Origin: Leptogorgia sarmentosa
Taxonomy: Eukaryota
Direction of reading: 5' to 3'
Assembly: GCA_964658305.1 (NCBI GenBank)
Contig: OZ210885.1
Coordinates: 2,418,001-2,482,000, forward strand
Length of the DNA: 64,000 nt
In this document: positions 3,195-48,318 of the stretch, in pieces
Layout of the letters: each line of letters starts with the position of its first letter
How positions within the stretch are numbered: the first letter of the stretch is position 1
Notes under the pieces: model-generated
Databases searched by the model: none
What the model was told of the DNA's origin: nothing
Seen by the model: the letters and a program-made list of their open reading frames with translations, nothing else
Translations under genes and position numbers: made by a program

Positions 3195-3380
3195 ATGTTG
3201 CTGTGCGGGTTAGTGAAAGTATGGTCGTTAGTGATGGCAATGCATGTCGCTCGCGCGAACATTACATATATATATTAGCGATAGAACTTATTAGGCACTG
3301 TTTAGATGTATATTTACGCAGCCGCCCAAAAGTCTAGGAGGTTGTTTAATTATACGTATGATCCTGTTATATGACCCCTT

Positions 3381-3627: not shown

Positions 3628-5687
3628 GAGTGCCTCGACGCCAACCATGATGGCGTCTCGTGAGACTCGGCCCCCCCCCATTTCAAACCGTTCCTACACC
3701 CCTGAAATTGTGATAATGCTGTGATACGCCCAGAAAAATATAATTCAACAAATATGTGTGAGGGGCCCCGCGCTGAACATCTGCCACAGGCCCCGCGCGA
3801 TGTTAATCCGGCCCTGGGGGGGGGGATAATATTCATAATTCGTGTTATGCGTTACTAATTTCTTTTGAAATCAATTGTTTTCAAGGTCTGTCAACACGAA
3901 TATATGCCCATGATAATAAATATGAGTCGCTTCGTGTTACTGAATGGTGGCAAGTGGAAGAAGTATTCTCCATGTGTGCTAAGTTTGTACCCAATTCCCG
4001 ACAAGTGATACTCAACCCCGATACTCAAGCACGATACGCAACCGCGAACTTCAACCGCTATTATTGTTACGTCTATTTGACATCTCATGCACCGTGAAGC
4101 ATCAAGTCTTGATTTAGTAAAATGCTCTATATCACCTGCCGAGGCATTATGAATGTCACATAAAATATACAGCCTATACGTGTCTTTAAACGGGCAAAAA
4201 CCCTGTCTGTAGTCACGCTGAAAGCTGGTTGCATAGTTGTAATTTAGTAGCGCTACAACAGCCACGGTTAAAGGCGTGCAATTGCGCAGAAAGCTTGCTT
4301 TATAAATAATACATTTTTGGCGGTCCTGCCTTCGCGAGAGAGCTGGACCTCGCGATCGTCGTTGTAAACAGCGGTCCTGAGCATGCGCAAGCTAAATTAG
4401 CCAATCAGAAACCAGAACTTTCAAAGTGAAAACAACAAAAAATCATAAAAATGCTATTTGTTTCTAAATATTTTATTTATATAAATTCGGCTCCCAAAGG
4501 AGATGCAGTATGCATTTTCTGATGCTATGAAATGCCACACGAATAATACAACAGCTATGAGGTGTCTTGTCAAATTTAAACCATTGGTCAACTGATCATT
4601 TTATGGAGTTTAATTCCGAGAAATGTGTACATCTTACTATTTCATGGGGGGCTGGTAAATGTGTAGTGTGGGCGACGGATTAATGTATAGAATTAGTTCG
4701 GTTATATTGGAAAGTTCGGTAATTATTATGTTCCTACTTACCGTTCAAATCGTAAAAATATTAAATATGTTTCCATGGGTTTTTTTAAGGAGATCTTGTA
4801 CCTGTTTTCCATCACCTGCATCGCACGTCGCATGCTAATTCATCAGCGCGTTTCCTCTATATGCCATAGCGCCTTGCAGGTTTCAGTGGCGCCGGCAGGG
4901 GGGGAGGGGCGTGGGAGCTGCCCCCGAATATTTCTCCAAGTGTAATTTAGATAAGAAATAAGACCAGAAGGAGATGAAATGTTCAAGAGATCCGCGAAGT
5001 GGAATTGTCTTCTATTTTAGCCCATAATCTTTGATTGAGGTATGTGGAAAAATATCCGCTGACCTCATTGGCATGGTCCGACTCCTCATTTGCCCCACCT
5101 CCGAAATAAAACCCTGGCGACCCCACTGTCCTACACTGACTTTAAGAACTCCTCAGGTAACAACCTCCTCTCTTTCCCTGTTAAATTTATCTCATCTAAT
5201 AAAATGTGACTATAACGAAATTTGAATAATAATTAAACTCATTCTCTAAATGTCACCAAAAATGAAGTTAAATTTTTTCAAGACAACGGTAAATGATTTT
5301 TCATAAAAACTCTTTGAATTCAATGGAGTTCCATTAGAAAATGTCTTGCAGTCCAAACAAATGAAAATCCAACTTAGACCAGTCACATCTTAAAGTGGAA
5401 GCAAATTGCGTTGTCATCTTTGTTATTAATAAACGATTAAGGTCATTAACATGCATACAATACAGTATGACTCCTCACAGAACAACCGAATTTTTGAACC
5501 TTTTTGAAACAATAGGTTATACTTTAACTACTTTTCTATATACACATTGCCACATAACGCTTAGTGCCATTTAATTTTCCATTAATTAATTACGTTTGAG
5601 CACTTTGTTTGTCCTTACCAAACGCAAGCTAAAAATATTCATTATTGTATACAGGTGACTGTCCTTAATTGTTCAAGCCTGCAACGT

Positions 5688-6623
5688 TCAATGTCGCCCA
5701 ATACTACTGCAAATGTTGAAAGCTTGCTTTCGTAGTAATGGACTTTGCCAAAAGAAAATAAGTGAATTAAGACTAGAATTTAACGCGCATACTGTTGCAG
5801 CCCAAGATTGGGCAGCTCGGAATTCGGCCGGTTCTGCGTTAATAAAAATTACATTAAGAATTGGCGCTTGTAAAAAGCACAGATAGAATGTAACCACAAC
5901 TAGAGCACATGATTTACCCAATTTTAACTCTCTTAAAAATTGTTTTTTCTTCGCGAACTCAGATGAGCTGTGTTTTACAGATGAATCGGTGAATGCTGTG
6001 TCCGAATTTCGCCCTGCAAGATAAATCTTTGTGTAGGCAAATGCATTAAATGCCAAAGGGATGCATAGATACGCCACACCAAGTATGTTGTATGCTTTTT
6101 TTGAAGCAACTGCCAACGGAACTATTACCATCAACAGTACACCTGTCGAACAAGTATATATCAAGAATCTTTTCTTCGTCAAATATGTAAGATGAATAAT
6201 TGGATGTAAGATGCCCATGTATCTCTCAAATGTTATTGCACATGTTGTAGTCAACGTTAAGCCAAACGGAACCAGAGCTATCATTGAAAGAACAAAATTT
6301 GTAACGCATTTCGCGCTACCCAAGACTTCCCTTGCTCTGAGAAATGTTTCCAAAGGAAGCGAGATTGCTCCAACTGCCAAATCAACCACTGCTTGAATGA
6401 GAATGAGAAAATAACAAAGCCTTTCTTTTAGCTGGGAGCTCCTGGTGATAGTGAGCACTGAGATACCGTTTAAAAGTATTGTAGGGATCACTAACACGGA
6501 ATTCGCCACACACACAGCAATTTGATTATTGAAATACTTTCTTGACGGAAATTCCAGTATTATAAAAGAGACACTGTCGAAAAAAGAGAAAGTCTCTATG
6601 TAATCATACGTCGTATTATTCAT
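5688..6623 (-). CDS. Intronless rhodopsin-like (class A) orphan GPCR, copy A, ~311 aa from MNNTT (an upstream ATG at 6653 is also in frame)
   Basis: 7 hydrophobic segments, TM1 N, TM2 DLAVG, TM3 ERY, TM7 NSSLNSLIFFW, N-glycosylation sequon NNTT. Confidence 0.88.
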   Translation of the reverse strand: MNNTTYDYIETFSFFDSVSFIILEFPSRKYFNNQIAVCVANSVLVIPTILLNGISVLTITRSSQLKERLCYFLILIQAVVDLAVGAISLPLETFLRAREVLGSAKCVTNFVLSMIALVPFGLTLTTTCAITFERYMGILHPIIHLTYLTKKRFLIYTCSTGVLLMVIVPLAVASKKAYNILGVAYLCIPLAFNAFAYTKIYLAGRNSDTAFTDSSVKHSSSEFAKKKQFLRELKLGKSCALVVVTFYLCFLQAPILNVIFINAEPAEFRAAQSWAATVCALNSSLNSLIFFWQSPLLRKQAFNICSSIGRH

Positions 6624-9600
6624 TTTCCAATGCAAAATAACAACTCTGTTCATGCTGCTTCTACTAACAAAGAAATATCGCTATATGAAATAGGTTGACA
6701 GATGGAATATTAAAATTGTAGGCAAAGTTAAATATTTCATATAGCTAAAGTAAATTATTTACGCAAATTGCTATATGATACTCATTACCGTTTTACATTG
6801 TATAGCAATAAGGATGCAATTGATACTCCCACATATGTGATATTTTGAAAAACTTTATTTGCATAAATGTGTGTAGTTCGATCTAAAGTAATATGGAATA
6901 GGTTCGGATCAATTGACTTTATCGCCACCCATGCGCATGGGGTGGCGTATATTCAAATGTGAAAATTTTACGATAAAGTCAATTGATCCATACTTAGGTT
7001 CTTATATTACATAAGTAATAAGTTCTCGCACAGAATATCGTCTATGAATGTCTTCAATAATTGCAACCAGATAGTCCGGCAGTGATAATAGTCTGTACTA
7101 GGTCCAAAATGGGGGCGATCTCGCGTTCCCCGTCTCGACCATTTTCGCTGCATGTTGAACTTTTAAAAGCGAATATTATCATTGATGTTCAATTATATTT
7201 TCCCTGAAGGATTTTCAATCGCGACCAAAAAGCAAATTTTGGACAGCTGTCTTTATCCCAATAATGATCGCATTGTTTCCTAAGCTAATATTTAATGACA
7301 TTTAATTATTTTGAAACGTTGCTTCATAATTAGCCTACTGCCAAAGTGCATATTCTATAATGTGTGAGGTAATTTGATACATATGCATATTCAAGTGAAT
7401 TATTAATTTCTAATCAATGATGCAGTTGACTACTTATACGGGATGTCCAAAAACGAGTCTTTATAAATTTCGGCACGCTGCTGCGTGCTCGTTTCTGTAG
7501 GAAATAAAACGAAATTCGCAAAACATGAGTGAAATTTTCGAGAACAAGTGTAATTAGCCATTTCTGAATAAAGCAAAGCAAAGGACTGGGTCTAGTCTCT
7601 CGGTTTGTAGGGACAAAAATGAACAATATGCCGAATATGACATCTAGGAAGTTCTCCTAAAGTTTTTCTAACTTCCTAGGGCCGTTTGTTCAAAAGGCGG
7701 TTAGTTTAACGCTGGGTTAACATAAAATTCAAAGAAAATTATCCAACAATTTGTTTTTGAATTTAGAAATGTTTCGTCAGAAATCTTGTGGAGATCAATG
7801 AGAGTTTTCTTTGAAGTTTCCAAGTAAACAGATTTGCAGAAATACACAAACTAAAACACTGCTTTAAATTTTAACCCAGGATTAGCCTTTCCTAAAGTTT
7901 TCTAACTTTGTGAAGTTCTTTGTGCATCCTGAAATGCAGAAATTATAATTAAGGCATGTTTTAATATTTATTTAGCTCGTTCACTTTAATTTGTTTCCCC
8001 TCCAAGCGTCAACTAGACCCAGTCCTTTGCTCGATTGGGAAATGGCTAATTTCCTACAATATAATTGTAGTGCCACAGAATACTAATCAGTAGTTTTTTT
8101 TCGTAGGCGCTCTATTCCTCATCATTCGTCACTCAACAGCGAAACCATTTGTTTACATTCATTTGCCTCTGAGGAAATTTTTTCCAATTTTCTAGTTGTT
8201 AAAAATGTTCAACTTTTGTCTTCCCTATGACTGTGTAAAAGACACTCTCCCCTGTATTTTGAAAATTCAAATTTCAATTTTTTTTCGATTATCCTACATT
8301 ATAAGTACCCAAACAATCTATATCAACCAAAACCTCCGTACCCTGTGTCGCTTGGCGAAATTGAATTTTGTTCACTTTTTTATAGATCCTGTATAAAACA
8401 ACAAATGGTCTGATTTAAATGGACTTTTTAATACTCCACAGTCTTCTCTCTGCTCTGAGACAACGAATTTGAGGTCATTTCCGCTATAAAAGTGTTGGGA
8501 GAATCCCTTGAATTTAAAAACTGAAAATGTTTCTCGACCAACAAGAATTTATAGGGATAAAATGGATCTCTTTCATTCTCTGAGCGACAGCTGAAGAATT
8601 CAAAAGCTCGAACGAAATGGAGCAGTCAGTCAGGCAGGGCCGACCAATCATACTGCGCCGTTTTAATTTTGGCGGGAATTTCCATGAATAATTGCAATAA
8701 TAAATTTTGATAACATGCCTTACATTTATAATTGGAACAAGAAAGCTTAAAAATTGGCATGGTATCTAACCAGAATTCCGTTTAACACATCAATACACGT
8801 TATTTTTTTGTACAGTCGTAATATAAAATACAGCCTTTTTGAAAGCCTTTTTGGAAATGCATATTTTCTGCGCACATTACGTGCGGAAGTTGTATTTTTC
8901 CAGTGCATGGAAGCTACAAGACCTTTATCAATTCAGTTTTATGAATATTTAGTGATTATTGAATGAGGTCTATATAGGATATTACACGGTTCGCTCGAAG
9001 ATATGGATTTTATGTTCTCGTGGCAAGAACAATATCTCACGAGTGAGCGCAGTTCTGTTTATTATATGGACTTATTCAGAGTGGCACAAATACATAACAA
9101 CTACCCTTTTAATGAAAACATGCAGTCTAAAACACGACAATTAATGGCTTTAAAATTAGCCTTTAGTAAATATAGATTATAAAATACCGCTTTATTGTAG
9201 TTTATTGTAGTATTGTAGCTTTATTGTTCGTCGCAAAACGTACTAATATCGTCTTCACTTAAATTCACAAACCTTGAAGTAGAAGCATTTGTAAACAGCG
9301 AAAAAGGCGGGAAGGTTATGTCACCCTACTGACATACGGAAAATACGCGCACCATATCCCGGATGTAGTGGCGTATGAGTTCTACGAGTGTTTTAGTTCC
9401 CAATAAAATACCGCTGTTCATATAATAATGTAGGATATGAGGAATTATGACCGAATTCAATAATTGTTTTCTTTTTTAACTTTTAGCGGAATAAACGCTT
9501 GCATTTTAAACACGATTAAGCATTCTTTGGCGAAGCCCTCTGCATTTTCCCGCTTTTAACATTAGCAGCATAAATTATTCGACACCATAATGTCACTTAA

Positions 9601-12882: not shown

Positions 12883-15446
12883 TTGTGAGTGGTCATATGA
12901 AGTGTCACGAAGCTCTTGCGGGGGCGCGGCGCAAAACAGTTGGTAATTTAATTACAGAATAGTCTTTCACATGTTTCTTAAAAAGTTGCATGCCAACTGT
13001 CTATTTGTGCGTGCTCGAGATTTAAAAACATTCCAGTGTTTTCTCGATAAATGAGACATGCCTTTATGTGAAGAAAAATTTTAACTACGTATAATTAAGA
13101 CAAACCAAAGCACTTATTACACAATGCATTTGTAGTAAACAGCGGCAGATGGTCTGGTCGTCAGATAACTGAAGTTCAATGAATGGCAAATTATTCATTC
13201 TAGAACTAATTTTCCGCAATTTATTATTGTTGCTATACAATATTGTATTATTATTATTTTGTTGTCATACCTAAGTTTCGTAATAATATTGCATCGCCAC
13301 TTCGTTTTTGAGGCTTCGTCACTTTTATATTTCTAAATATTATTATGCAACAATGATCATGTCATTCTTCTCGCATGAAACAGGCTGTAGTGGCAATTTT
13401 TGAGACAAAACTATACTATTTGTACGTGGTATCGAGCGCTCTTGGAATTTCGTTAGCCAAAGCAGCATAATTTAAATGATAAGGTATAGAAACGCAAATT
13501 GAAATAGCGGGAAGTTTTTCGATTCCATATTTAGTTTAGCCAATATTATCTGCTGAACAATGTTTAAAACTTGTATAAACTTGTTCATACAACGACAAAT
13601 ATGATCAAATCCTATATTCCTATCATTTGTTACGGCAAGCACGACACGGAGATAAAGTATTGGTTGAAAACCGAATATAACGTATTTTGTGGAGTTGTGT
13701 GATACAGGTATGTTGTTCATACATCCATTTTCTGATTATCCAAAACACTGTCTTATCTGACTTTAGATTTTGTTCAGTAAAAGTTGAGAAATACTTTAAT
13801 GTATGATTCATATAATTATTCACAAGGAAATATTTATTCAAGACAGATTTAAATTTCGTATAAATTGAACATGCCATGCAGACTTGTTCTGTATGTCGTA
13901 TATATAAGTGAGTGATCTCTAATCTTGAGAATAGTCAATCCGGCTGACTGAATTGAAGTCGAAGTAAAATCATTTATGAGAGAAACGTCACTAGATATCC
14001 AACATAACAGCGTGGCATTTTTCGTGGGAATTAAGACTTTCAATCTTTCATTCAAAACAGGTTTGTTTTAAATAATTTACTGCTTAGTTTCAGGTCGTTT
14101 TTAAATTATACTGCTAAACTTTTACTTTGTTTGTAGCGAAAGCTGCACGAAAACATGCAAATATGTAAACATTAACAATGGTTTATACGATATTTTGGGG
14201 GAGCTGACTTCGATGTGTGGATTCATAGATTGCGTTAAAATGCATGCAACAGGATATTTGATGCAGTCTGGGAAATGTTAAATTCTGAGGTTTGTCGCTT
14301 TCACTTTCTCAGAAGAAGTTCTTTCACTTTCGCCTCAAAATAACATGACATCATTGTGAGTGGTCATATGAAGTGTCACGAAGCTCTTGCGGTGTCACGA
14401 AGTGAAGTGTCACGAAGCTCTTTCTATTTGTGCGTGCTCGAGATTTAGAAACATTCGAATGTTTAATTTTCTCGCTAAATGAAAGATCCTTCTATATTAA
14501 GAAAAAATTTAACTACGTTTAAGATAAACCAAAGCACTTATTACACAATGCTTATGTAGTAAACAGCGACAGGTGGTCTGGTCGTTAGGGTTAGGGTTTC
14601 TGACATCAATCCCCCCCACCGCCGCCCAATTAACGTTCTATCGCCGGCCCTGTGTGAATGGCATAGTTAGAGACAACCTTTGTATTTGGAATTAAACTAT
14701 GTAAATACAAAAGGAGCCCACAGTAGTGTTTTTCCGCCTTATTTGTATTTTCCAGGATTTATCTCTTTTCACGAGTCCAGGTTCTCTTATAGTCAGTTGT
14801 GGTCTTGTTGCATTGGTTCTTGCCTTCGGTTTTTGTCTTTTCACAAGCTTCTATCACTCTTCATATTTTTGAGATAAATGACGACTACTCAATGATAACC
14901 AACATTATATATATAGAACAAGATATACTGTATAAATATCACATTAGATCAAATGTCATTGCCTATAATTATTACTATATAGCAAACTTTGTCACCTAAA
15001 TTTCAATGACCTAATTTATACATTTTGCAATTTGAAAGTCATAATTCGCATTCATTTTGAGGAAAATTTAAAATCTCGAAATTTCACACGGCAGAACGTT
15101 GACACACAAACTGGTTCTATAAAACTCTTAATTTCGTACGCGTTAACTACTTTCATAGTTAAATGGTAGTTAGCTCTAGAAAACGCATTTCTTAATGGTT
15201 AACTTTCGCACGTTTTTATACAACCGGCCCCAGTTGTACACAAGGCCACCCAGCTTAACCTGGGGGAATTTAAAATTCAAAAATTTCCAGTTTGCCTATA
15301 AATTGAGACTGAAATATTCTCCAGAATTGCGAAATCTTGGTCGGGAGTGAAAAGAGCTTTCTTCTTTGGAGTTTCGAAGTATATGGGAATTTAGCTGTAC
15401 ATATATTTGTTGTTTTTTAGGTTAGAGTGACGTATCATACCACACA

Positions 15447-18320
15447 ATGGCGGGAGAAACAGTAGGATTTAACGATCCAATTCATGGCTACATGGAATTT
15501 GATCCTTTATTGGTGGAAATCATACATACTCCATCCTTTCAAAGAATGAAGAACATCAAGCAACTGGGTGGTTCATATTGGATCTTCCCTGGTGCCTCAC
15601 ACAATCGCTTCGAACACTCACTCGGCACTGCGCACCTGGCTGGAATGATGATTGAAAGATTGAGAAATGTAGGCGATGGTAGAGATTATGTAACGGATGA
15701 AGACGTCTTGTGCGTTAAGATTGCAGCACTCTGTCATGTAAGTAATATAAGTAATATAAGTAATATAAGTGTGACTTTGTCTATTGATATTTTTTTAAAA
15801 TATTTATATATAAAGAAAAACGGCATGCAAGGTTGTTTGGCTGAGGTAGCTCGTCTACTTTAATGTATGTATGTATGTAAAACTTTATTTCAATACGCTA
15901 ACTTCGACAATTATTTACAAACTGGTTTCCATGAAGGGCGTATACACACAAAGAGCTAAATGTTAATTATATAAAGAACAAAATATGTAAGAATCCCACC
16001 CTAAAATTTTAACATCATCCTCCCAAACCTCTACCCCCCAACAAGTAACCACCCACTCACCCACACGCAAAACTAACCCCCCTCCCGCCCACAATCTATA
16101 TTGCTTCCCATCATTTGGTCCTGGAGAAATTAGCTTATTATCTACTTAAATGCAATTTCGCCTTAAATGCATTGTTTTAAATGACGTAATTGACTCAGCC
16201 GCCTTGACATCTTGCGGGAGACTATTCCATAGAATTGCTCCACTGTATCCAAATGTTTTCTTTAGAAATTCCGTTTTGGGTTTTTTTTAACGAGAGATCA
16301 GTTTCGCTATTGCGTAAATCATAAATATTCTGCGATGCATTTCTCCGAGAAAAAAGATCTTTAAGGTTTGGCGCAGTGTGGTTCCCCAAGGTTTTATACA
16401 TCAATACTAGCTTGTTTTGTTCTCGTCTCCTAGCCAGGGTTTCTCAGCCCAATTTGTTTAGGACTTCAGACGATCTTACATCGTAGTCAGCTCCGGTAAT
16501 CACCCTTGCTGCTCGATTTTGAAATTTTTGCAATTTGTCTTGAAGTTCCAAGCCACAGTTATCCCACAGGGGAGAAGAATATCTTTAATGTACTTCAAAT
16601 GCCTATGAAAGGAAACTTTTTGTTGCAATATATTAATTGAAGAACTTTTAAACACATTTAAGTTCTTTATATATTTTTATTACAGGGCTTTGTTGATGAG
16701 ATACTTCAGTTTGAATCTTTTCCTTTGCCCGTTAATGACGTCACACATTGCATGATGAGTCATAATTAATTAAACTATAAATTGTTCCTGTAAATAGACG
16801 GTTTAGAAAATAAATCGTACGTTTTTGTAATTAGCGGGCATGGGAAAAGATTCAAACTGAAATATCGCAAAGCACTGTATAAAACATTATAAAAGAACGT
16901 GTACTACAATTTTAAAAGTTCTTTCATGCATTGTAACAATACTTTTCGTTTCATACGCACTTTAATATCAGATACAAGACAGTGTTAATAAGCTTTGCTT
17001 CCTACGAGGACGTTATGTCAATGTTTTTCCATTTCACAGGACTTGGGTCACGGCCCATTCTCCCATGTTTTTGATACGACCATGAAAAAGAAATTAATTG
17101 AGTACCATGAATGTCAAATTGACAAATTGTCTGATCAGGAATCTACCGATGCTGTTGAGAAGTTAGCGTACCACGAAAGGCAAAAAAAATATTTGAAAAA
17201 TTGGGAGCATGAAGATGCATCGTGTAAAATGTTTGATTATATGATAGAGGAAAACTACAAACTGAAAAAGGCTTTTGAAAAAAGAAATTTGGACAGAAGC
17301 AAGAGAGAGCTCATAAAAGAGATTATTAAAGGTACAAGCCCTGACGAGATTATTAAACGTGAAAGCCCTGAGGACGATAAATTGATAAAACAACTGAAAA
17401 TCAATGGTAAAGCGAAATGGTTTCTGTTTGAAATTGTGGCTAATAAAGTCAACGAAATCGATTGTGATAAGTTCGATTATTTTGCCAGAGACTGTCACAA
17501 TCTTGGAATGAAGAGCAATTTCGATCATCTTCGCTACATTTACAATATCCGGATTATGCCAAAACCCGACACGGAAGAGCTGCACTTATGCGTACGTGAC
17601 AAACTTAAATTTAATCTGTACGAGCTCTTCCACACCCGATGGTCATTACATCATCGCGCTTACCAACATAAGACCACCAAAGCTATCGAGGAAATGATTA
17701 CCGATGCTTTTGTTCTGCTAGAAGAAAAGTACAAGTTCTCCGAGGCCATACACGATATGAAGGAATATGCTAAGCTCACCGATGGTATCTTTTACGAAAT
17801 CTTGAACAGCAGTGATACCGATGAGAAAACCCAGAAAGCGCAAGCAATTCTCAGAAGAGTTCAGGAGAGAAATTTATATGAGTTTTATCACGAGTTTCAA
17901 CCGAATCAAAAGTTAGAAATCAACGATTTGGAAGCTGCAAAAGAAATAGCGAAGTTATCAGGAGGCCAGGTTTCTCCAGATGATTTTTTTGTGAGAACTG
18001 TAAATATCCATTTTGGCCAGAAGGAGAAAGACCCCGTGGAATCTGTCCTATTTCACAAAAAGAATCTTAAAGTTATCGATCCAATTCATAGAAGTGACGT
18101 ACTAAGCAGAATGCTCCCCGAAAAGTTTTCTGAACAGTATGTTCGTGTTTATGGAAAGAATCGCAACGACAAAAAAAAGATCATTAAGGACAGTTTCAAA
18201 AAGTGGAGCAAAGATAAAAAAATTGTTCGTGATAATCAGTGGGCAAGTGTGGCAAGTGTGGTAATGCTGACGGTGTCGGTGGCAGGGGCAGGTGTTCTTT
18301 CAAAATATTTATTCAGATGA
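15447..18320 (+). CDS. SAMHD1-like: SAMHD1-like HD-domain dNTP triphosphohydrolase A (no SAM domain); exons 15447-15737 and 17040-18320, ~523 aa
   Basis: [34 protein letters not shown] (phase-0 intron), [18 protein letters not shown] and YQHK motifs all intact. An acceptor at 15420 implies an upstream 5'UTR exon. Confidence 0.92.
15865..16577 (-). mobile_element. 5'-truncated LINE (CR1/L2-like) 3' end in the SAMHD1-like A intron
   Basis: Decayed ORF2 C-terminus ([18 protein letters not shown]...LMYKTLGN...YDLRNS...[13 protein letters not shown]) with a (TACA)n tail. Absent from the paralogous intron at ~46293. Confidence 0.8.
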
Positions 18321-20296
18321 CTTTTTCCCTATTTAATAAATGAGCTTTGATAAAAAAATACGTGCCTGATCCATTCTGAACCTTTCGATCCTGTACTGCT
18401 GCTTTCAGGTGACGATGTTGCTTGAGGGATGCTACAGGAAGCACATGTCGGTGTTCTACTGATGTTGCTAGACCTGACTGTTTTTTATTACTTTGGAATG
18501 GCTTTTGCGTCAACCGGCCTCAAATATCAACATTTATGATCCACTTACTGATGAACATTTATACGGACACGATAATGAAAACTCCATGCATGCAATACGA
18601 ACTTGTGGTAGCTATATCGTAAATGGATAATACGTTATACTGTGAACTGCATACATCTATATAGTTTATTGTAAGTTCTGTTTATGTGCTTCTATCAAGT
18701 GGCAGGCTAAATCGAATGCACGACATAGATACTAAAACACAGGAGAATCATTGCTGAACCGAAATTAGTTGAAAAACGCTAACGATACATGTATATCACT
18801 GGTCTCGCCGTAGGTTAGCGCATGCAAGCATTTTGATGTTGAAACTAAAAAAAACTAAAATTTTTAGTATAATTTTTGATTCGGTACAGCCTATCGTCTT
18901 CACTTTCAGGAAAACACACAATTTTGTGCCGCTGTTTTCACGATTCATGTTGATTGTTCTTTATTCACAACAGCAATCATTTTTTAAATAAATATTTATT
19001 TGTTTTTGTAGTCGCCCCTGCGTCATTAGGATTGGCAGTTATAGACGGCTGGCGACCGTCCGCGTTATCAAAGCTGCGCAGTGCTTTGATTTTTTTTCGG
19101 AATCTTTCTGTTACCCTGAGCGTATACATTTTACATGTCCGTCAATCTCTGGGTTCAGTAAGATTTCGAAAATAAAGTTTAAGGCTTCTCGTGTTATAAC
19201 GAAAAGTCTAACATTTTAGACACAAAGTCTAACAAAAAGACATTTTAATAGTTAGTACGAGTACGAATAATCAATAATGTAATTAGAATTGAATTGTAGA
19301 CATATTTAAATGAATACATGTAGTGATGATATTCAAATAGTGATTTAAAATAATTTCCTTAATTTTCCTTCCTGACCATGTAACCGTCCCACTCCGGCTG
19401 GTAAATAATTGGAAAGGTTAAATACTCTTTTGAAAAGATCATGATCAACATGGCGGCCATAACTCGTAAATAAAATACGTAAGCGCTGATCAACCGTGAA
19501 GTAATCTCTATGTATCCCATGAGAAACAAACGGACATGTGTTTTGCGTTGGCGTTGTATCTCGCCCCTGCGACTCGATCTGGGGTTGAAATTCAATATGG
19601 CGGCCAGGGTATCAAATTTCTATTCAGCCCCATGTAGAAAATCACCTATAGCAGCCGTACAAGGTGTCACAAAAACCATTGAAATTAACGCATGTTTGAA
19701 TTTGAATTTTGAATCTTGTTTTTTTTTAATTTTAATGTCTTTATACTTTGCGCCATTCGTCAAAACAAAAACTCGCCATATACTAAATTATTATTCTCCA
19801 AAGCCGCTATTTTTTACGCAACCGTGCTGCTGTCGAATGTCCAAAATATGTTTTTCCGGCATTAGATTGCTCATTGCATGCCATTTAAACTCGAGCACAT
19901 CAATTATGAAATCAAACAGACTATTTTAACATTTTTTTATTCTATATTCAATTGCTCTCGAATACGAGAATTGACCTACATTTTTACAAATCAGTTAGTA
20001 CTACCATAGCTATAACACGAATTTATCATATAATCTTATTTTCAACATTAAATATCTATACGATTTAATACGAGGAAATATATTTTCATAAGGCCAGTTT
20101 ACACTTGGAATTTTTGCTTTTAGTTTTCCAGTTTTAATAATTAAAATGTGAAGGAGTGAATTCATATTAATAATGAATTTGAGTGGTGCAGGCTTCACTG
20201 GTTTACTTGTTCACATCTATCAAAATTCAAAATGAGAACCGCGGCAAAATTTGCAAGTGTAAAGAGGCTTTACGATGGGGAAAATCCATCAATTTA

Positions 20297-20593
20297 AAAG
20301 AGCATCTTTAATTCAGCAAAATTGCAAAAGTTTGGTTGCGAAATGTTGTAAAGTAAGGAAAATATGACCTTGTGAAGTTGGCAATTTTTGTATAATTATG
20401 TTTGTATTACGCGCGGAGAAACGTTACCACGTGCACGAAAATGTAATACATTTTTTTCGAACGAGGTATGACGTTTTTCCGCGCGTAATACTAAAATATA
20501 CAAAAATTGCCAACTTCACAAGGTCATATTTTCTTTACTTTACAATATTTTGCGACCAAACTTTGCCATTTTACTAAATTAAAGATGCTCTTT
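20297..20593. mobile_element. Foldback/MITE-like element
   Basis: ~120-bp imperfect inverted arms (aaagagcatcttta...ttggcaatttttgtata / tatacaaaaattgccaa...taaagatgctcttt); absent from unit B. Confidence 0.6.
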
Positions 20594-21854
20594 CTGCTGT
20601 TATAATATCATTTCTTATTTCAAATTGTTTTAAAATTTGGTCTATAAGGTTAAAGGTCCATTATACAGTACATTCTTTTCTTAAATAGTCAAATAATGCT
20701 GAAAAAGCTTTTTACCATGGTCTGTTGGTAAACACCTCCGAAAACACTACTTAACCAACTACTCAAAACTTTTTACAGGACAGGACTACCCATACATTTT
20801 GAAGTACAATGCTATAATTATTTCGAAATTTTCTATATTATTTACAAGCTCAATGTTAACAAGAAATTAATTGGACACATTTATACCACATATAATTATT
20901 TTTTGCCCATCAATACGAAAACTGGAAGCTAAGGTAAGAAACAGAGGTCTGTCGAGTTCTAAAAGATCCAGGTCAGTGGCTCTCATTCAAAAACCTGCTT
21001 TGCTTGATCCGATCATTCAGCGGAAGGAGTGGCTATTTAGTGCAATGTTGCTCCACCCCCAAAGACTCTACTGAGTTTTGTCGTACCTTTTCCTCTTGTA
21101 CTTATTTCGACAAATACGTACATAAAGTTAAGCATATGAAAAATACGCTGTCGGAATCGGGTCTCAAACTGATTTGTGATACGGTATGTTGGGAAAAAGT
21201 TGCAATTGCACTAAATAGGGAGTGAGAACCGTTCACTTTTCACACACAACGAATGACTATATTCTCCCTTCAGCAGATACACATACAGCTCGATGCTCAA
21301 AATCAAATTCTATACACAATTTTCGGAAACACTACCAGGTGATCTCAATACACGGAAAAGGACTGGGACTAGCTGTCAGATAGAAATCCATTTTTCGATT
21401 GAAACAACTGCATCTCTTCCATAATATACTTATTGCCAAAGCTATAGTTCTCATAACCAAACATAATTACAAAATTTCAACTAGTTTCGTACAGAATAAC
21501 GAAAGATATAACCGAGTGAATATAGAAAAATGAATTTGTATTCGAACGACCTTTTCTGAACGCTGACTGGCTGAAACACGAACATGAGATCACCTGGAAT
21601 ATAATTTTCCTACAGAAGTTGGATCAATTTTAAACGGATTCTTTCCCTTTTTAATTTTTATGGAACTGTTAATGGACCGAATGATCGTTTTAAACGTCTT
21701 TTCATATTTTCCTATTAATTTTAACCTGCTGAATTTTGATTTCTTGAACTCAAATATTTTGCGTCATCCACAGATTTTGCGAAGTAATCCATTACAATAT
21801 ATAAACTGAATGATATTTACATAAACTCAATATTGCTGTGATTTACATCCGGAT

Positions 21855-24748
21855 CTAGCCAGGACATGATCCAGCCGTGTATCTATAATACGCCATCTGG
21901 CAGACACCATGAAAGTGAACAAATGCTCCTGCTACAACCAATACGTGAAAGATTTGATGACTTTGAAACTACAAAAGAAAAGTTACGTATTTGGTTGAAA
22001 ATTATGTTTCCAACCCTCTTCTTTCAGGTTATGTTTTCAAGGCCCCCATTTCCTCCTCCCTTTAACTTAAATGATGATCTGTCTATGAATATGAATTTCT
22101 GTTATTACAGTCGATTTCGAGTCAAGCACTTTTCACTAAAATCTTCCCAAGTTCGTTATGAAAACTACAAAAGATCGTTGCGAAGTTCAAAAATTCATAA
22201 TGAATTTGATTGGCTACTTTTTAACGTTTAGCCAATCATAAACTTTGTTTACAAACTGGTTTGTGAATTTCATTATAAACTTTTGAGCTACGGAAACAGC
22301 TTCCAAAGTCCGGAACGAATTTTTTGTGAAAAGTGACCTGAAATCGACGGCAACAAGTCAAACCAGACTTGATTTCTCGAAAGTGGATAGAAAAAGTTAT
22401 TTTCGGAAGGGTAAATGGTTCCTTTACGAGTGGAGTAGTCACTAAACTCCGTGAACAGTTGAGTAAAATTCATTGACTATAAGTTAGATTTTCCGGCTGG
22501 AATCGAACCTATGCCTGTGCGACGTTGAGCACTGGTCTGACCACTAAAGCTACGGAGGTGGTACTTTTTCAAACTCAAAATTATGAAACAAATCTACAGA
22601 AAATAAAATTATCGTGTGCATCCCCATTTTAAGGAATTAAAATACAGTATGTTGGGCTTATGATGGGCTTAATTAATATGTGTTTTGGTTCAATTGGTTG
22701 CTAATATACCTGCGAATGGGTTGAGGGTAAATCAATATGTTTTTATGGCACTTCACTCGACGTGGAATATTTTTTGATGGATTAAATGGTTTTAGTATCG
22801 CGAGTGGAATATAGCACAATTAATCCCATTAGAAAATATTCCATATAATTATTATACATCGAGTAAATTGACATAAAATCATAATTAGTACCCTCAACCT
22901 ATAGAAAAAGTTACATTGCCGATTAGAAAAAAAATCCAAACTATTTGCGCATTTGTGCTATGTAAAAAAGAGGAAACTTACCACAATATTGCATTTTCCG
23001 GGGAAGAAACGTTCTGGAATCCTTGTTGCGTAAAGAACGGCCCCAGTGATATACAGTACGCCCATCAATATCAGCCAGCCCATGGAGGCTTGCTTCAGAG
23101 CTATTGTAATGCCATGTGCGATCAGAATATGGACGCAGGGAATAATACCAGAGCAGCCGAGACCAACAAACACGACTGGAAAGGAAATAAAATTTAATGC
23201 AATTGGGCAGATTAAAACCCGTCTTCCAGTTCGCCATTTTTTTCGCGCAAAGAAGCAAAAAGAGAATGTGATTGGTTGGTGAAGTCGTCAGTGTTTGTTG
23301 CCAGCCAATCATGTTGCTGTTTTCTCTTTTCGCGCGAAAAAATCTGCCTAATGGAAAACAGGCTTACAAACAGTCCCCGGGTGTAAGCTAGTCAGAGTTA
23401 TCACAGTCTATTTATAGAAATACCCGCTGAAAAAGACTGTCAGGTCGAAACCAGGCGTCAATTCTACTGTTCTAACATTATATGTGTTTTAATACAACTA
23501 TTCACTACACGCACTGAAGTTTTTTGCCCGCTAAGATTATTTACCTGCTCGAAGTACTCTGTATTTTGGCGTATTGAATTTCTCCCACAAAGAAATACAT
23601 ATACAGATGAAACCAAGCAAGCACACCATGGCTATATAAACAATTTTTGTTGTTGGATAGCAGTAGAAGCCATAGTAAAGACACGGAATGAAGGAACCGA
23701 CTATCAATAGAGCAATTCCCGTGTAGTCCAACCTATAATTATGAAAGTAGTATTTATTGAAAATAATTCAAGAGTTTTGATTGGTTAAAGGGGGGTTACA
23801 GTCCCTAATGTAAACAAACGCTTTGTTTACATTTTGAGTTGCTATATTTGTAAAATTTGATTGAACTACTGAATATTTGACACTTTTCGGGTTTGCTATG
23901 CTCCTAAAACAATATAAACCAGCGTTTCGATTCAAAAAAGTTTCAAAAAATCTGGACAATGTGGTCCACATTTGTTATGAGCAGAACCGATGCGCAGAAG
24001 CGACTGTAACCGGTCTTTAAGAGCCGCAGATGAAATATTCATCTTTGTTCAGTAAAACACATATATATATGACATTATGATGTCACACTAATTTATGTTA
24101 TGCTGTTTATGCCAAAAGTGAGAAAATGGCTCAAAGAAAGGTTCTTGTTTACAATCAGCAAGCATTTACCCCAAGTCCAATTTATCAATAAATGATAAAA
24201 CAATTTTTTAATTCAGTGCTAAAACAACCGGAAGCGAGCCAACTTCATACAGTATAAACTCACCTGCTAAATAGATTTGAGATTTTATCCGAGTGGCAAT
24301 CCATTGTATGGTAGAGGGTTGAAAATGCCAGACAAAACAGAGCTCCAGCAAAGAATGAACCAAAAACAAACTTTTCTGTTATATCTCTTGGGAAAGGGTT
24401 TGATAATGTCACTGGTCTGAGGTAGAAATACAATGTGACGCAGACAAATGCAATGAAGCCTAGCAAATGTGTCCAAATATTCCCAGTCTCTGTGTGTATG
24501 CGAAACATGCTTTTAAAGCAGAGTCGAAAGGATTCTAAAGGAGGCCGATGGCCATGATCAATGAAATCATTATCACGAAGCCATTCTGGCAACTCCCAAT
24601 GAGCCACAACACGCCAGCCTCGTTTTCCTGCTTCAATGACCTGCCGTGCCAAACGTTCAGCTTGTTCAGCGGCTTCTTTCACATGGATACGTTCGTTTAC
24701 ATTTTGAAACATCACTTGCAAGTTTTCTTCACCTCTTCCAATCAAAGC
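21855..24748 (-). pseudogene. ADIPOR-like: AdipoR/PAQR copy A lacking exon 1; exons 24748-24264, 23732-23545, 23175-22982 and 21968-21855 are open
   Basis: Same splice sites and exon lengths (485/188/194/114) as copy B. The duplication breakpoint falls in intron 1. It may still encode an N-truncated protein. Confidence 0.7.
22492..22558 (-). mobile_element. tRNA-derived SINE head remnant (truncated copy at ~52022-52070)
   Basis: Reverse complement shows A box gtagctttagtgg and B box ggttcgattcc without a full cloverleaf. Confidence 0.5.
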
Positions 24749-25250
24749 CTGGAAGTAATACAAAAGGCATTAAAATATCTGTCAGTAACAAACATTGTCT
24801 GAGACTGTATTTTGCCCAGGCATTACACCATCCATATATAGGTATCTACTATACATATTTATAAAAGAACAGGAAGTAAGTGAATAAATACAAGTCACAT
24901 GATTAGTACTGCATACACTAATTTTAGCCAAAATCGTAGAAGTTTTATGCTCAAATTTTGGTAAAGTTCATACATTCATTATCACTGTTCATAACTTCAT
25001 GTCAATACAGAGAAAAAAAATGAAAAAAAATGAGGCATTTCTTGCCTGATCTTGTGATCAATATTTTATCAATCTATTGCTGTGCACATGAACAAATATG
25101 TGAATTTCAGCTTAATGTATTGAGTCCACACAGCTATAAAGCTCCACCGCGAACTTCAACCGCTATTATTGTTACGTCTATTTGACATCTCATGCACCGT
25201 GAAGCATCAAGTCTTGATTTAGTAAAATGCTCTATATCACCTGCCGAGGC

Positions 25251-26082: not shown

Positions 26083-27632
26083 GCCGAGGCATTGCATTAT
26101 AAATGTCACATAAAATATACAGCCTATACGTGTCTTTAAACGGACAAAAGTTCTGTCTGTAGTCACGCTGAAAGCTGGTTGCATAGTTGTAATTTAGTCG
26201 CGCTACAACAGCCACGTTTAAAGGCGTGCAATCACGCGGAAAGCTTGCTTTATAAATAATACATTTTTGGCGGTCCTGCCTTCGCGAGAGAGCTGGACCT
26301 CGCGATCGTCGTTGTAAACAGCGGTCCTGAGCATGCGCAAGCGAAATTAGCCAATCAGAAACCAGAACTTTCAAAGTGAAAACAACAAAAAATCATAAAA
26401 ATGCTATTTGTTTCTAAATATTTTATTCATATAAATTCAGCTCCCAAAGGAACAGATGCAGTATGCATTTTCTGATGCTATGAAATGCCTCACGAATAAT
26501 ATAACAGCTATGAGGTGTCTTGTCAAATTTAAACCATTGGTCAACTGATCATTTTATGGAGTTTAATTCCGAGAAATGTGTACATCTTACTATTTCATGG
26601 GGGGCTGGCAAATGCGTAGTGTGGGCGACGGATTAATGTATAGAATTAGTTCGGTTATATTGAAAAGTTCGGTAATTATTATGTTCCTACTTACCGTTTA
26701 AATCGTAAAAATATTAAATATGTTTCCATGGGTTTTTGGAGATTTTGTACCTGTTTTTCAACGTCGTTTCCATCACCTGCATCGCACGTCGCTCGCTAAT
26801 TCATCAGCGCGTTTCCTCTATATGCCATAGCGCCTTGCAGGTTTCAGTGGCGCCGACAGGGGGGGGCGTGGGAGCTGGGAGAGCGATATTCAGGGGAATA
26901 TTTTTCCAAGTGTAATTTTGATAAGAAATAACACCAGAAGGAGATGAAATGTTCAAGAGATCCGCGAAGTGGAATTGTCTTCTATTTTAGCCCATAATCT
27001 TTCATTGAGTGTATGTGGAAAAATATCCGCAGACATCATTGGCATGGTCTGACTCCTCATTTGCCCCACCTCCAAAATAAAATCCTGGCGACCCTACTGC
27101 CCTACACTGATTTAACAACTCCTCAGGTAACAACCCCCTCTGTTTTCCTGTTAAATTTATCACATCTAATAAAATGTGACTACAACGAAATTTGAATAAT
27201 AATTAAATGAAGTTAAATTTTTTCAAGACAACGGTAAATGATTTTTCATAAAAACTCTTTGAATTCGATGGAGGTCCATTAGAAAATGTCTTGCAGTCCA
27301 AACAAATGAAAATCCAACTTAGACCAGTCACAACTTAAAGTGGAAACAAATTGCGTTGTCATCTTTGTTATTAATAAACGATTAAGGTCATTAACATGCA
27401 TACAATACAGTATGACTCCTCACAGAACAACCGAATTTTTAAACCTTTTTGAAACAATAGGTTATACTTTAACTACTTTTCTATATACACATTGCCACAT
27501 AACGCTTAGTGCCATTTAATTTTCAATTAATTAATTACGTTTGAGCACTTTGTTTGTCCTTACCAAACGCGAGCTAAAAATATTCATTATTGTATACAGG
27601 TGACTGTCCTTAATTGTTCAAGCCTGCAACGT

Positions 27633-28568
27633 TCAATGTCGCCCAATACTACTGCAAATGTTGAAAGCTTGCTTTCGTAATAATGGACTTTGCCAAAAGA
27701 AAATAAGTGAATTAAGACTAGAATTTAACGCGCATACTGTTGCAGCCCAAGATTGCGCAGCTCGGAATTCGGCCGGTTCTGCGTTAATAAAAATTACATT
27801 AAGAATTGGCGCTTGTAAAAAGCACAGATAGAATGTAACCACAACTAGAGCACATGATTTACCCAATTTTAACTCTCTTAAAAATTGTTTTTTCTTCGCG
27901 AACTCAGATGAGCTGTGTTTTACAGATGAATCGGTGAATGCTGTGTCCGAATTTCGCCCTGCAAGATAAATCTTTGTGTAGGCAAATGCATTAAATGCCA
28001 AAGGGATGCATAGATACGCCACACCAAGTATGTTGTATGCTTTTTTTGAAGCAACTGCCAACGGAACTATTACCATCAACAGTACACCTGTCGAACAAGT
28101 ATATATCAAGAATCTTTTCTTCGTCAAATATGTAAGATGAATAATTGGATGTAAGATGCCCATGTATCTCTCAAATGTTATTGCACATGTTGTAGTCAAC
28201 GTTAAGCCAAACGGAACCAGAGCTATCATTGAAAGAACAAAATTTGTAACGCATTTCGCGCTACCCAAGACTTCCCTTGCTCTGAGAAATGTTTCCAAAG
28301 GAAGCGAGATTGCTCCAACTGCCAAATCAACCACTGCTTGAATGAGAATGAGAAAATAACAAAGCCTTTCTTTTAGCTGGGAGCTCCTGGTGATAGTGAG
28401 CACTGAAATACCGTTTAAAAGTATTGTAGGGATCACTAACACGGAATTCGCCACACACACAGCAATTTGATTATTGAAATACTTTCTTGACGGAAATTCC
28501 AGTATTATAAAAGAGACACTGTCGAAAAAAGAGCAAGTCCGTATGTAATCATACGTCGTATTATTCAT
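27633..28568 (-). CDS. Intronless class-A orphan GPCR, copy B, ~311 aa
   Basis: Nearly identical to copy A; protein differences are at the N-terminus (IETFS vs IRTCS) and the upstream ATG is lost. Confidence 0.88.
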   Translation of the reverse strand: MNNTTYDYIRTCSFFDSVSFIILEFPSRKYFNNQIAVCVANSVLVIPTILLNGISVLTITRSSQLKERLCYFLILIQAVVDLAVGAISLPLETFLRAREVLGSAKCVTNFVLSMIALVPFGLTLTTTCAITFERYMGILHPIIHLTYLTKKRFLIYTCSTGVLLMVIVPLAVASKKAYNILGVAYLCIPLAFNAFAYTKIYLAGRNSDTAFTDSSVKHSSSEFAKKKQFLRELKLGKSCALVVVTFYLCFLQAPILNVIFINAEPAEFRAAQSWAATVCALNSSLNSLIFFWQSPLLRKQAFNICSSIGRH

Positions 28569-33081: not shown

Positions 33082-33741
33082 GTGCTGTGATTGGTTGAAC
33101 AGCGTGACGTTACGCTATAGTGTGCTGTGATTGGTTGAACAGCGTGACGTTACGCTATAGCCGCGCTGTGATTGGTTGAACAGCGTGACGTTACGCTATA
33201 GCCGCGCTGTGATTGGTTGAACAGCGTGACGTTATGCTATAGCCGCGCTGTGATTGGTTGAACAGCGTGACGTTACGCTATAGCCGCGCTGTGATTGGTT
33301 GAACAGCGTGACGTTATGCTATAGCCGCGCTGTGATTGGTTGAATAGCGTGACGTTACGCTATAGCCGCGCTGTGATTGGTTGAACAGCGTGACGTTACG
33401 CTATAGCCACGCTGTGATTGGTTGAATAGCGTGACGTTATGCTATAGCCGCGCTGTGATTGGTTGAACAGCGTGACGTTACGCTATAGCCACGCTCTGAT
33501 TGGTTGAACAGCGTGACGTTACGCTATAGCCACGCTCTGATTGGTTGAACAGCGTGACGTTACGCTATAGCCACGCTCTGATTGGCTGAACAGCGTGACG
33601 TTACGCTATAGCCGTGCTCTGATTGGTTGAACAGCGTGACGTTACGCTATAGCCGCGCTCTGGTTGGTTGAACAGCGTGACGTTACGCTATAGCCGCGCT
33701 CTGATTGGTTGAACAGCGTGACGTTATGCTATAGTCACGCT
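33082..33741 (+). repeat. 16 x 41-bp tandem array in the left TIR/subterminal region
   Basis: Unit gccgcgctgtgattggttgaacagcgtgacgttacgctata; about 3 degenerate inverted copies at 40968-41080. Confidence 0.95.
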
Positions 33742-33852
33742 TTGAATGATTGTTGGCATAAAACTATACCGTCGTCATTTAATATCATTGTTTTAGTCTT
33801 TACCCTACAAGAGGCAACACAGCTATCCCTTTGGAGAAATTTATTTTGAGAT

Positions 33853-45896: not shown

Positions 45897-48318
45897 ATGG
45901 CGGGAGAAACAGTAGGATTTAACGATCCAATTCATGGCTACATGGAATTTGATCCTTTATTGGTGGAAATCATAGATACTCCATACTTTCAAAGAATGAA
46001 GGACATCAAGCAACTGGGTGGTTCATATTGGATCTTCCCTGGTGCCTCACACAATCGCTTCGAACACTCCCTCGGCACTGCGCACCTGGCTGGGATGATG
46101 ATTGAAAGGTTGAGAGATGTTGGCGATGGTAAGAAATATGTAACGGATGAAGACGTCTTGTGCGTTAAGATTGCAGCACTCTGTCATGTAAGTAATATAA
46201 GTGTAACTTTGTCTATTGATATATTTTTTTAATATTTATATAATAAAGAAAAAGCATGCAAGGTTGTTTGGCTCAGGTATCTCGTCTACTTTAATATCTT
46301 TAATGTACTTCAAATGCCTATGTAAGGAAACTTTTTGTTGCAATAAATTAATTAAAGAACTTTTAAACACATTTAAGTTCTTTATATTTTTTTATTACAG
46401 GGCTTTGTTGATGAGATACTTCAGTTTGAATCTTTTCCTTTGCCCGTTAATGACGTCACACATTGCATGATGAGTCATAAGAAATTAAACTATAAATTGT
46501 TCCTGAAAATAGACGGTTTAGAAAATAAATCGTACGTTTTTGTTTGTCCTTAATCTCTATATTACGTCATTATTTCAAGAATTTGATTCATTGAGGACAC
46601 AGATAACTGGTATTTCACGACAACTCATTATGCAAAATGTGACGTAATTAGCGGGCATGGGAAAAGATTCAAACTGAAATATCGCAAAGCACTGTATAAA
46701 ACATTATAAAAGAACTTGTACTACAATTTATAAGTTCATTCATACATTGTAACAATAATTTTCGTTTCATACGCACTTTAATATCAGATACAAGACAGTG
46801 TAATAAGCCTTGCTTCCTACGAGTACGTTATGTCAATGTTTTTCCATTTCACAGGACTTGGGTCACGGCCCATTCTCTCATGTTTTTGATACGACCATGA
46901 AAAATAAATTGATTGAGTACCATGAATGTAAAAACACCGATGCTGAGAAGTCGTTAGAACATTTGATAAATTGGAAGCATGAAGATGCATCGTGTAAAAT
47001 GTTTGATTATATGATAAAGGAAAACGAAGAACTGAAAGAGGCTTTTGAGAAAAGGGATCTTGACGAAAGCAAGAGAAAGCTCATAAAAGAGATTATTAAA
47101 GGTACAAGCCCTGACGAGATTATTAAACGTGAAAGCCCTGACGACGAAGAATTGAAAAAAGAATTACTGACAAAAAAAGAGATCAAATGGTTTCTGTTTG
47201 AAATTGTGGCTAATAAAGTCAACGAAATCGATTGTGATAAGTTCGATTATTTTGCCAGAGACTGTCACAACCTTGGAATGAAGAGCAATTTCGATCATCT
47301 TCGCTACATTCACAATATCCGGATTAGGCCAAAACCCGGGACGAATGAGCTGCACTTATGCGTACGTGACAAACTTAAATTTAATCTGTACGAGCTCTTC
47401 CACACCCGATGGTCATTACATCACCGCGCTTACCAACATAAGACCACCAAAGCTATCGAGGAAATGATTACCGATGCTTTTGTTCTGCTAGAAGAAAAGT
47501 ACAAGTTCTCCGAGGCTATGTCCGATATGGGGAAGTATGCCATGCTGACCGATAGCATATTTTACGAAATCTTGCACATGAGGGATCGCAATGGCAAAAC
47601 CAATGAAAAAAGCGAAGAAGAGCGAAAAGCGCAAGAAATTCTCAAAAGAGTACAGGAGCGAAAATTATATAAGCTTTATGACGAGTTTCAACCCAGTCAA
47701 GATGATTTCAAGATAGATGATTTAAAAGCTGCTGCAGAAGAAATCGCAAAACTATGCGATCCGGAGGTTGATCCAAAACAATTACTTCTCACTATTGTAA
47801 AAATCGATTTTGGGCAGGAAGAGAAAGACCCTGTAGAATCTGTCATATTTTACGAGAAAAAAGAAACAAAAGAGGAAAATGTTAAGTATACGTACGAAGT
47901 TTGCCTCCATAAAATTGGTAAAGAAGACGTAAGCCGAATGCTCCCAGAACGGTTTATTGAGCGGTACGTTAGAATCTATGGAAAGAAAGAAGATATCGAA
48001 GGTGAAAAGAAAGAAGATATCGAAGGTGAAAAGAAAGAAGATATCGAATGTGAAAAGAAAGAAGATATCGAAGGTGGAAAGAAAGAAGATATCGAAGGTG
48101 GAAAGAAAGAAGATATCGAAGGTGGAAAGAAAGAAGATATCGAAGGTGGAAAGAAAGAAGATATCGAAGGTGGAAAGAAAGAAGATATCGAAGGTGGAAA
48201 GAAAGAAGATATCGAAGGTGAAAAGAAAGAAGATATCAAAGGTAAAAAGAATGAGAAAGAAATTGTTCAGGGCGGTTTTAGAAAGTGGGCGGAAAAATAT
48301 AAACAAATTTCAAATTGA
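45897..48318 (+). CDS. SAMHD1-like: SAMHD1-like HD-domain dNTPase B; exons 45897-46187 and 46855-48318, ~584 aa
   Basis: Same catalytic motifs and intron position as copy A, with a divergent C-terminal half. Confidence 0.92.
47983..48246 (+). repeat. Coding minisatellite, 11 x 24 bp, KKEDIEG(E/G)
   Basis: Unit aagaaagaagatatcgaaggtg(a/g)a, in frame within SAMHD1-like B. Confidence 0.95.

Follow-up and report, generated by a model that had tools for sequence, protein, structure and literature searches.

A likely tail-anchored subfamily of SAMHD1 in octocorals

Introduction

SAMHD1, an enzyme of major importance for antiviral defence and genome stability, is treated as soluble and is controlled by phosphorylation of Thr592. 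In Leptogorgia sarmentosa, a SAMHD1-like gene (gene A) encodes a protein ending in a hydrophobic stretch, which raises the question whether a member of this family is held on a membrane and, if so, on which one. The gene lies in a window of 64,000 nucleotides of animal DNA with ∼37% GC (contig OZ210885.1, positions 2,418,001 to 2,482,000, forward strand), for which an original prediction had proposed a membrane-tethered dNTPase that it did not recognise as a described form. That assessment stands, as no membrane-anchored SAMHD1 was found in the titles or abstract openings of the literature searched, which covered few subscription journals. In three papers that use the term "tail-anchored", it refers to TREX1, to tail-anchored proteins generally, or to a poxvirus protein (PMC4895045, PMC13656305, PMC13251384). 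The only paper found that joins SAMHD1 and octocorals lists Samhd1 among heat-changed genes in red coral (10.1101/2025.05.12.653513).

If true, the natural exchange of the Thr592 switch for a membrane anchor in one lineage would mean that dNTPs can be depleted locally. TREX1, whose anchor was also added late, would be a parallel, and coral innate immunity would gain a candidate gene family.

Gene structure and transcripts

Gene A consists of two coding exons (15447-15737 and 17040-18320, + strand) encoding 523 amino acids (aa) in total. A second SAMHD1-like gene, paralog B, lies ∼30 kb downstream in a duplicated block. Their features are as follows.

13676..13707, + strand: probable non-coding 5′ exon, 3′ end only, with a GT donor after it; loose contig ends at 15419 (X4, X6) match it by eye with one mismatch
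15421..15737, + strand: first coding exon of gene A, with TAG at 15423-15425 and ATG at 15447; N-terminal half of the HD domain, to the His206 equivalent
15738..17039, + strand: intron of gene A (GT..AG); X4 and X11 contigs connect 15737 with 17040
17040..18239, + strand: second coding exon of gene A, completing the HD domain and adding the C-terminal lobe; matches human SAMHD1 at E 2e-64
18240..18302, + strand: predicted transmembrane segment of gene A, W498-S518, from its KD19 (defined below), GRAVY, and low hydrophobic moment; character conserved in the clade
18303..18320, + strand: basic end KYLFR (18303-18317, net +2) and TGA stop (18318-18320) of gene A; crossed unspliced by contigs
18321..19300, + strand: likely 3′ UTR of gene A; contigs continue to 19279-19300, where the region used for contig alignment stops; AATAAA at 18335, 18987, and 19171
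45897..48318, + strand: paralog B, exons 45897-46187 and 46855-48318, 584 aa; active site same as in gene A, no anchor

The stretch at 13676..13707 is inside a repeated block, and the source copy of the 5′ exon is uncertain. Contigs with another 5′ end (loose ends, X4 and X11) join at 15464, which suggests that this organism has three or more SAMHD1 paralogs.

The protein begins straight in the HD domain. Its first exon matches PF01966 and SAMHD1 structures (phmmer, E 1.7e-32), and no SAM domain match, signal peptide, or nuclear localisation signal (NLS) was found at the N terminus. Because an in-frame TAG precedes the ATG by 8 codons, none of these can lie upstream. The intron interrupts the H|D motif. 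The Trp of the last conserved F..W helix (∼human W572) is encoded at 18204-18206 and is followed by a short charged linker.

Transcript evidence consists of contigs, not reads, and we infer an RNA origin for those of runs X4 and X11 because these runs hold gene A pieces spliced over the intron; intron-skipping and tail-crossing pieces are different records of the same runs. The original prediction would have failed if the 3′ end were spliced away, but the tail and stop are crossed unspliced by X4 record 18 (17997-18499) and X11 record 11 (17392-19279), and no splice joint was seen between 18200 and 18320 in contigs of these runs, a format that rare splice forms would escape. Donor-like GT sites are present at 18229 and 18261, again with no joint in the contigs. 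An artefact of the gene model, in which an intron is read through, was therefore rejected as the main form, all the more as homologue P0003, which is full length and spans the intron position, carries the tail. Within the tail, X4 record 18 has a single synonymous change (18269), and a natural variant has lost 6 nt in frame with hydrophobicity kept; an identical tail occurs in homologue P0201. In an X9 contig, 73 tail bases are exchanged for 68, which may shift the frame.

A conserved active site and an altered GTP site

Residues were numbered on orangutan SAMHD1 (P0144, 626 aa), the list of functional positions being drawn in part from two papers (PMC7045340 and PMC11074143). Gene A is identical to this reference at 19 of 19 active-site positions. 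Its substrate pocket, which we take to comprise Q149, L150, R164, H215, E234, K312, Y315, D319, R366, H370, Y374, and Q375, is identical at 12 of 12. The HD metal-ligand and catalytic residues named in PMC7045340 are all present (ligands H167, H206, D207, and D311; catalytic H210, D218, and H233). Between the HD motif and His233, at 17090-17195, there is a variable helical insert of ∼10-35 residues, found only in the octocoral clade when compared with other SAMHD1s.

Conservation extends to the second (dNTP) allosteric site, identical at 11 of 13 positions, and to the dimer-dimer interface, where H364 and S368 are kept and D361 is replaced by Glu; R333, R352, K354, N358, H364, and R372, which belong to these two regions, are all retained. 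The first (GTP) allosteric site is identical at only 3 of 8 positions (Q142, F165, and R451), with the changes K116V, V117G, D137H, R145K, and K455E. Exon 1 carries altered positions of this site at gene A residues 6, 7, 27, and 35; the original prediction had missed the change. K455E is also seen in P0005 and P0007. D137H and R145K occur together in gene A and in 10/10 full-length octocoral-clade homologues aligned, whereas B has D137 with R145K. Both are also found in soluble-tailed octocoral paralogs (P0016-P0038) and hence predate the anchor. In human SAMHD1, D137A and R145A lower tetramerisation and catalysis, according to PMC7045340. With the GTP site altered, dNTPase activity of gene A is likely on the residues it retains, but not assured, and the pattern across octocoral SAMHD1 paralogs suggests that they respond to another activator or to none.

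A model of exon 2 (mean pLDDT 85.5, and largely >80 as far as exon-2 residue 390) has the HD-domain fold of SAMHD1 with its C-terminal lobe. All matches listed by Foldseek for this model are SAMHD1 chains, one of them within a Cullin4 model entry. Gene A thus resembles human SAMHD1 in fold (Foldseek, E 9e-22), in sequence (E 2e-64), in its 19/19 active-site residues, and in most second-site residues. It differs by lacking a SAM domain and an N-terminal NLS, by having a hydrophobic tail for the Thr592 segment, and by a GTP site changed at 5/8 positions. For lack of a SAM domain and NLS, and with the T592 region replaced, it is a SAMHD1-family paralog rather than a canonical SAMHD1.

A hydrophobic tail in place of the Thr592 segment

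The tail is as originally written: 21 uncharged residues (W498-S518) followed by K-Y-L-F-R, encoded at 18240-18317. By simple hydrophobicity scales, we found a best 19-residue Kyte-Doolittle mean (KD19) of 2.00 in a window ending 6 residues from the C terminus. The six highest KD19 windows of the protein are all within the tail, whose GRAVY is 1.73 over 21 residues and whose hydrophobic moment is 0.10. By these scales there is one hydrophobic segment within ∼30 residues of the C terminus, as in tail-anchored proteins, with no signal peptide and no other membrane segment. A GPI-anchor signal was rejected because gene A has no N-terminal signal. In the AlphaFold model, tail pLDDT is below 50 and only part of the tail is helical.

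Human residues ∼584-626, including the Thr592 site, correspond in position to this tail. In a sister clade of octocoral paralogs, the same helix leads to TP-x-K and then to a basic tail, a region aligned with human Thr592. The anchor starts 10-14 residues past the W572 equivalent in most members, or 22 in P0209/P0339, and so occupies the position of the Thr592 segment. Judged on these alignments, the tail is a replacement of that regulatory segment, a point that the original prediction had missed. Thr592 is a CDK site tuning the stability of the SAMHD1 tetramer, and deletion of 584-626 abolishes tetramerisation of the human enzyme (PMC7045340).

The soluble-tailed sister clade (P0016-P0028) is among the closest known comparisons. 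Its members are 49-57% identical to exon 2 (among the best 120 of 1,876 matches), and the full-length ones aligned share the SAM-less start and D137H/R145K. They differ in having the CDK-like TP-x-K site and basic tail where the anchored clade has its hydrophobic segment.

Conservation of the tail among homologues

A single tail of this kind could arise by chance, since 849 of 42,534 random starts in the window (2.0%) yield an open stretch of 25-49 codons with KD19 ≥1.5. We therefore looked at homologues, in three sets (the best 120 of 1,876 matches, the best 120 of 2,470, and the best 150 of 4,654). In the first set, whose closest named members are from the octocoral Paramuricea clavata (62-64% identity), C-terminal KD19 is ≥1.5 in 11 of 120, with 10 of these 11 among the 14 closest. 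The tail is not confined to gene A: 10 of the 14 closest homologues in this set end, like gene A, in a hydrophobic, non-amphipathic, basic-ended tail. A census among the matches listed found a tail in 19/26 clade proteins (near-duplicates counted; B, the 313-aa fragment P0336, and P0340, an unrelated 57 aa, excluded) versus 4/312 outside the clade. The frequencies among the closest homologues and outside the clade place the tail above chance. A recent chance extension in gene A alone was likewise rejected, the tail being spread over the clade in homologue counts and trees.

Tail sequences have diverged far more than the enzyme, being 34% identical versus 69% for the cores (mean over 55 pairs of 11 anchored proteins), and yet their character has been kept. 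Changes at uncharged tail positions leave the residue uncharged in 604/676 cases, compared with 331/540 in the 60 columns upstream, a count that is partly circular because the rows were picked for hydrophobic tails. The tail ends are net +1 to +3 in 13/13 clade members scored, with none neutral or acidic, and in 15/15 anchored tails examined the hydrophobic moment is 0.01-0.25 and the mean hydrophobicity 0.54-0.80. The best KD19 windows of P0009, P0010, and P0014 reach 1.95-2.56. Ala, Gly, and Ser abound in the anchored tails, four of which reach only KD19 1.50-1.58, and in the most hydrophobic ones the unbroken uncharged run is only 14-15 residues.

That the tail is not a membrane anchor but a degradation signal, a segment packing on protein, or a tolerated leftover of an old extension seems to us very improbable. 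Hydrophobic C termini can act as degrons, the tail is frequently lost (see below), and its hydrophobicity is marginal in some members. Nevertheless, tails only 34% identical still share hydrophobicity, position, and a basic end, which also survive an in-frame deletion, and the low hydrophobic moment disfavours a helix packing on a surface. The tail-anchor-like character originally proposed is borne out by a position at the extreme C terminus, the lack of an N-terminal signal, hydrophobicity with a low moment, and a basic end kept in diverged homologues. We consider it highly probable, on this conserved character, that the tail would insert post-translationally into the membrane of an organelle, leaving the HD domain cytosolic.

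Outside the clade, P0096, of a hydrozoan-like clade, has, at this position, a hydrophobic tail unlike that of the clade, and its two closest relatives are without one; this singleton is either an independent gain or chance. The tails of P0220, P0266, and P0280 are singletons as well, two of the three without a basic residue after the segment. Convergent gain outside the clade is not claimed, because 4/312 is about the chance level (2.0%). A tail-focused search was uninformative, returning the query alone among 171 candidates, and the ESM Atlas gave scores of 0.86 only, leads at best.

Probable gain and losses of the tail

Trees were built on sequences without tails. In a quick tree of 72 rows, 17 rows (11 of them anchored) form one clade within the octocoral paralogs (SH-aLRT 100). 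In a C-lobe tree of 32 rows, all 14 anchored rows are in a branch supported at 96/96, with P0017 outside, and five label changes are needed. We read these trees as a single gain followed by at least four losses, which affected B; P0006/12/15; P0011; and P0332. The anchor is missing from P0338 as well and is counted as lost there. P0017 may never have had an anchor, although its position may be a long-branch effect. The anchor is lost even between proteins >90% identical. P0011 ends just short of the segment kept in P0009, and the difference between P0332 and P0013 looks, at the sequence level, like a frameshift.

Paralog B is among the losses. The tail had originally been noted as absent from B, and it is: B terminates 9 residues past the last conserved Trp, nowhere exceeds KD19 0.98, and is followed by no remnant of the gene A tail in a local DNA alignment. 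Missed at that point was the direction of the change. The C-lobe of B groups with those of the anchored P0003/P0004/P0007 (support 99/95), so B has likely lost an anchor that was, as far as the trees can tell, likely an ancestral trait of the whole clade. The N-terminal half of B is near-identical to that of gene A. Between the two genes, dS is 0.63 in the C-lobe but 0.06-0.08 across exon 1 and catalytic core, a mosaic that suggests gene conversion between old paralogs. No positive selection was seen between A and B, with dN/dS of 0.4-0.6 by region. Between its last strand and last helix, paralog B carries a charged unit of 8 residues repeated ∼11 times, encoded by a tandem repeat with a 24-nt period (47979-48251). 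Pairing of an anchored with an anchor-less copy seems to recur: A with B, and P0008/P0017 and P0013/P0012, the two members of each of these pairs coming from contigs of equal length. Tandem duplication and a rapid turnover of copies would suit an immune family.

Likely target membrane and consequences for the enzyme

Mitochondria, perhaps shared with peroxisomes, are the likeliest target by analogy with mammalian tail-anchored proteins, whose mean tail charges are 1.12 for mitochondria, 2.5 for the shared mitochondrial/peroxisomal class, 0.21 for the ER, and 6.03 for peroxisomes (PMC5450235). The clade charges of +1 to +3 fit the mitochondrial and shared means and not those of the ER or peroxisome, by rules that are mammalian or yeast. 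Of the mitochondrial or peroxisomal tail type originally envisaged, the mitochondrial or shared part fits the charge, and a purely peroxisomal target is less likely, the gene A charge of +2 being far below the peroxisomal mean of +6. FIS1/GDAP1-type mitochondrial and shared tail-anchored proteins similarly have one moderately hydrophobic C-terminal segment and a short tail of +1 to +3, but they are not homologous, and the targeting of gene A is extrapolated from mammalian rules.

A real tail anchor directed instead to the ER or outer nuclear membrane would place gene A much as TREX1 is placed, its dNTPase domain facing the cytosol at the nuclear envelope or on viral factories derived from the ER. 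Tail GRAVY values of 1.73-2.0 straddle the yeast ER threshold of 1.75, the best windows of gene A and of P0009, P0010, and P0014 lie above it, and greater hydrophobicity can override tail charge (PMC5450235). The tail anchor of TREX1 itself lies in the ER and outer nuclear membrane (PMC4895045). We regard this destination as unlikely, given that all 13 clade tails scored are net +1 to +3 against an ER mean of 0.21.

A mitochondrial location agrees with what has been reported for the family: human SAMHD1 occurs in mitochondrial fractions and binds VDAC1 and MAVS (PMC12239581), reaching mitochondria via partners and without an anchor of its own, and a review states that SAMHD1 regulates mitochondrial dNTP import (PMC13656305). 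By analogy, a role of SAMHD1 at mitochondria is plausible. We conclude, with moderate confidence, that gene A is a tail-anchored, SAM-less SAMHD1 paralog, likely acting as a cytosol-facing dNTPase on the mitochondrial outer membrane.

On this proposal, a duplication in an octocoral ancestor would have been followed in one lineage by the exchange of the CDK site and basic tail for a tail anchor, with cell-cycle control and nuclear entry given up. Moderate hydrophobicity and the +1 to +3 end would direct the protein to mitochondria, perhaps shared with peroxisomes, where the anchored enzyme would cut the local dNTP supply at the membrane surface, most plausibly in innate defence or control of mtDNA supply. 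Anchor-less copies such as B would recur through truncation or frameshift, providing a soluble form.

Gene A raises the question of activation in a SAMHD1 whose GTP site is altered and which has no 584-626 segment. It could be anchored and no longer a tetrameric dNTPase, but a dimer, a scaffold, a nucleic-acid binder, or a decoy for viral SAMHD1 antagonists. Apart from the GTP site, the 584-599 segment required for human tetramers is lost (PMC7045340), and SAMHD1 tetramers have D2 symmetry (PMC11074143), from which it would follow that four tails on short linkers (10-14 residues in most members) should not all face one membrane. Loss of the dNTPase is quite improbable in our view, because the 19/19 active-site residues are kept together with R333, R352, K354, N358, H364, and R372, because D137H and R145K are common to the soluble-tailed paralogs and so older than the anchor, and, weakly, because dN/dS is ∼0.5 in the A-B catalytic core, where there are few changes. 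If the anchored dNTPase does form D2 tetramers that cannot seat four short tails in one membrane, it might form mixed tetramers with anchor-less paralogs such as B, their ratio setting the mitochondrial dNTPase, or act as a nucleotide-gated tether bridging two membranes; both of these are doubtful. For the dNTPase reading, A and B are a ready anchored/anchor-less pair for testing local dNTP pools at the mitochondrial surface.

As a functional precedent, TREX1 is the closest working analogy. It too is an innate-immunity enzyme of nucleic-acid metabolism, with a C-terminal helix on a membrane and a cytosolic catalytic domain (PMC4895045), and its anchor is a late addition, proposed to have occurred more than once (PMC4895045 and PMC12206365). 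TREX1 differs in its unrelated fold and substrate, in its location at the ER and nuclear envelope, and in having a long disordered linker versus 10-14 residues in most anchored SAMHD1s. Taken as a whole, the tail is a real and conserved feature, likely expressed, and likely defines a tail-anchored subfamily within the known SAMHD1 family.

Other features of the window

The two SAMHD1-like genes are part of a tandem segmental duplication (14611-25117 and 45075-54528), each copy holding in addition an HlyIII/PAQR-family gene on the minus strand (24260-24769 and 53695-54204). Between the paralogs, at 35257-39083, are multi-frame fragments of a DNA polymerase B of the protein-primed type (PF03175), presumably a broken Polinton/Maverick-like element. 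A 4-kb block holding a single-exon rhodopsin-family GPCR is duplicated at 96.7% (4144-8138 and 26094-30081). A long ORF of the MFS_1_like family occupies 1752-3209 on the minus strand, and a tandem array with a period of ∼41 bp is present at 33081-33752.
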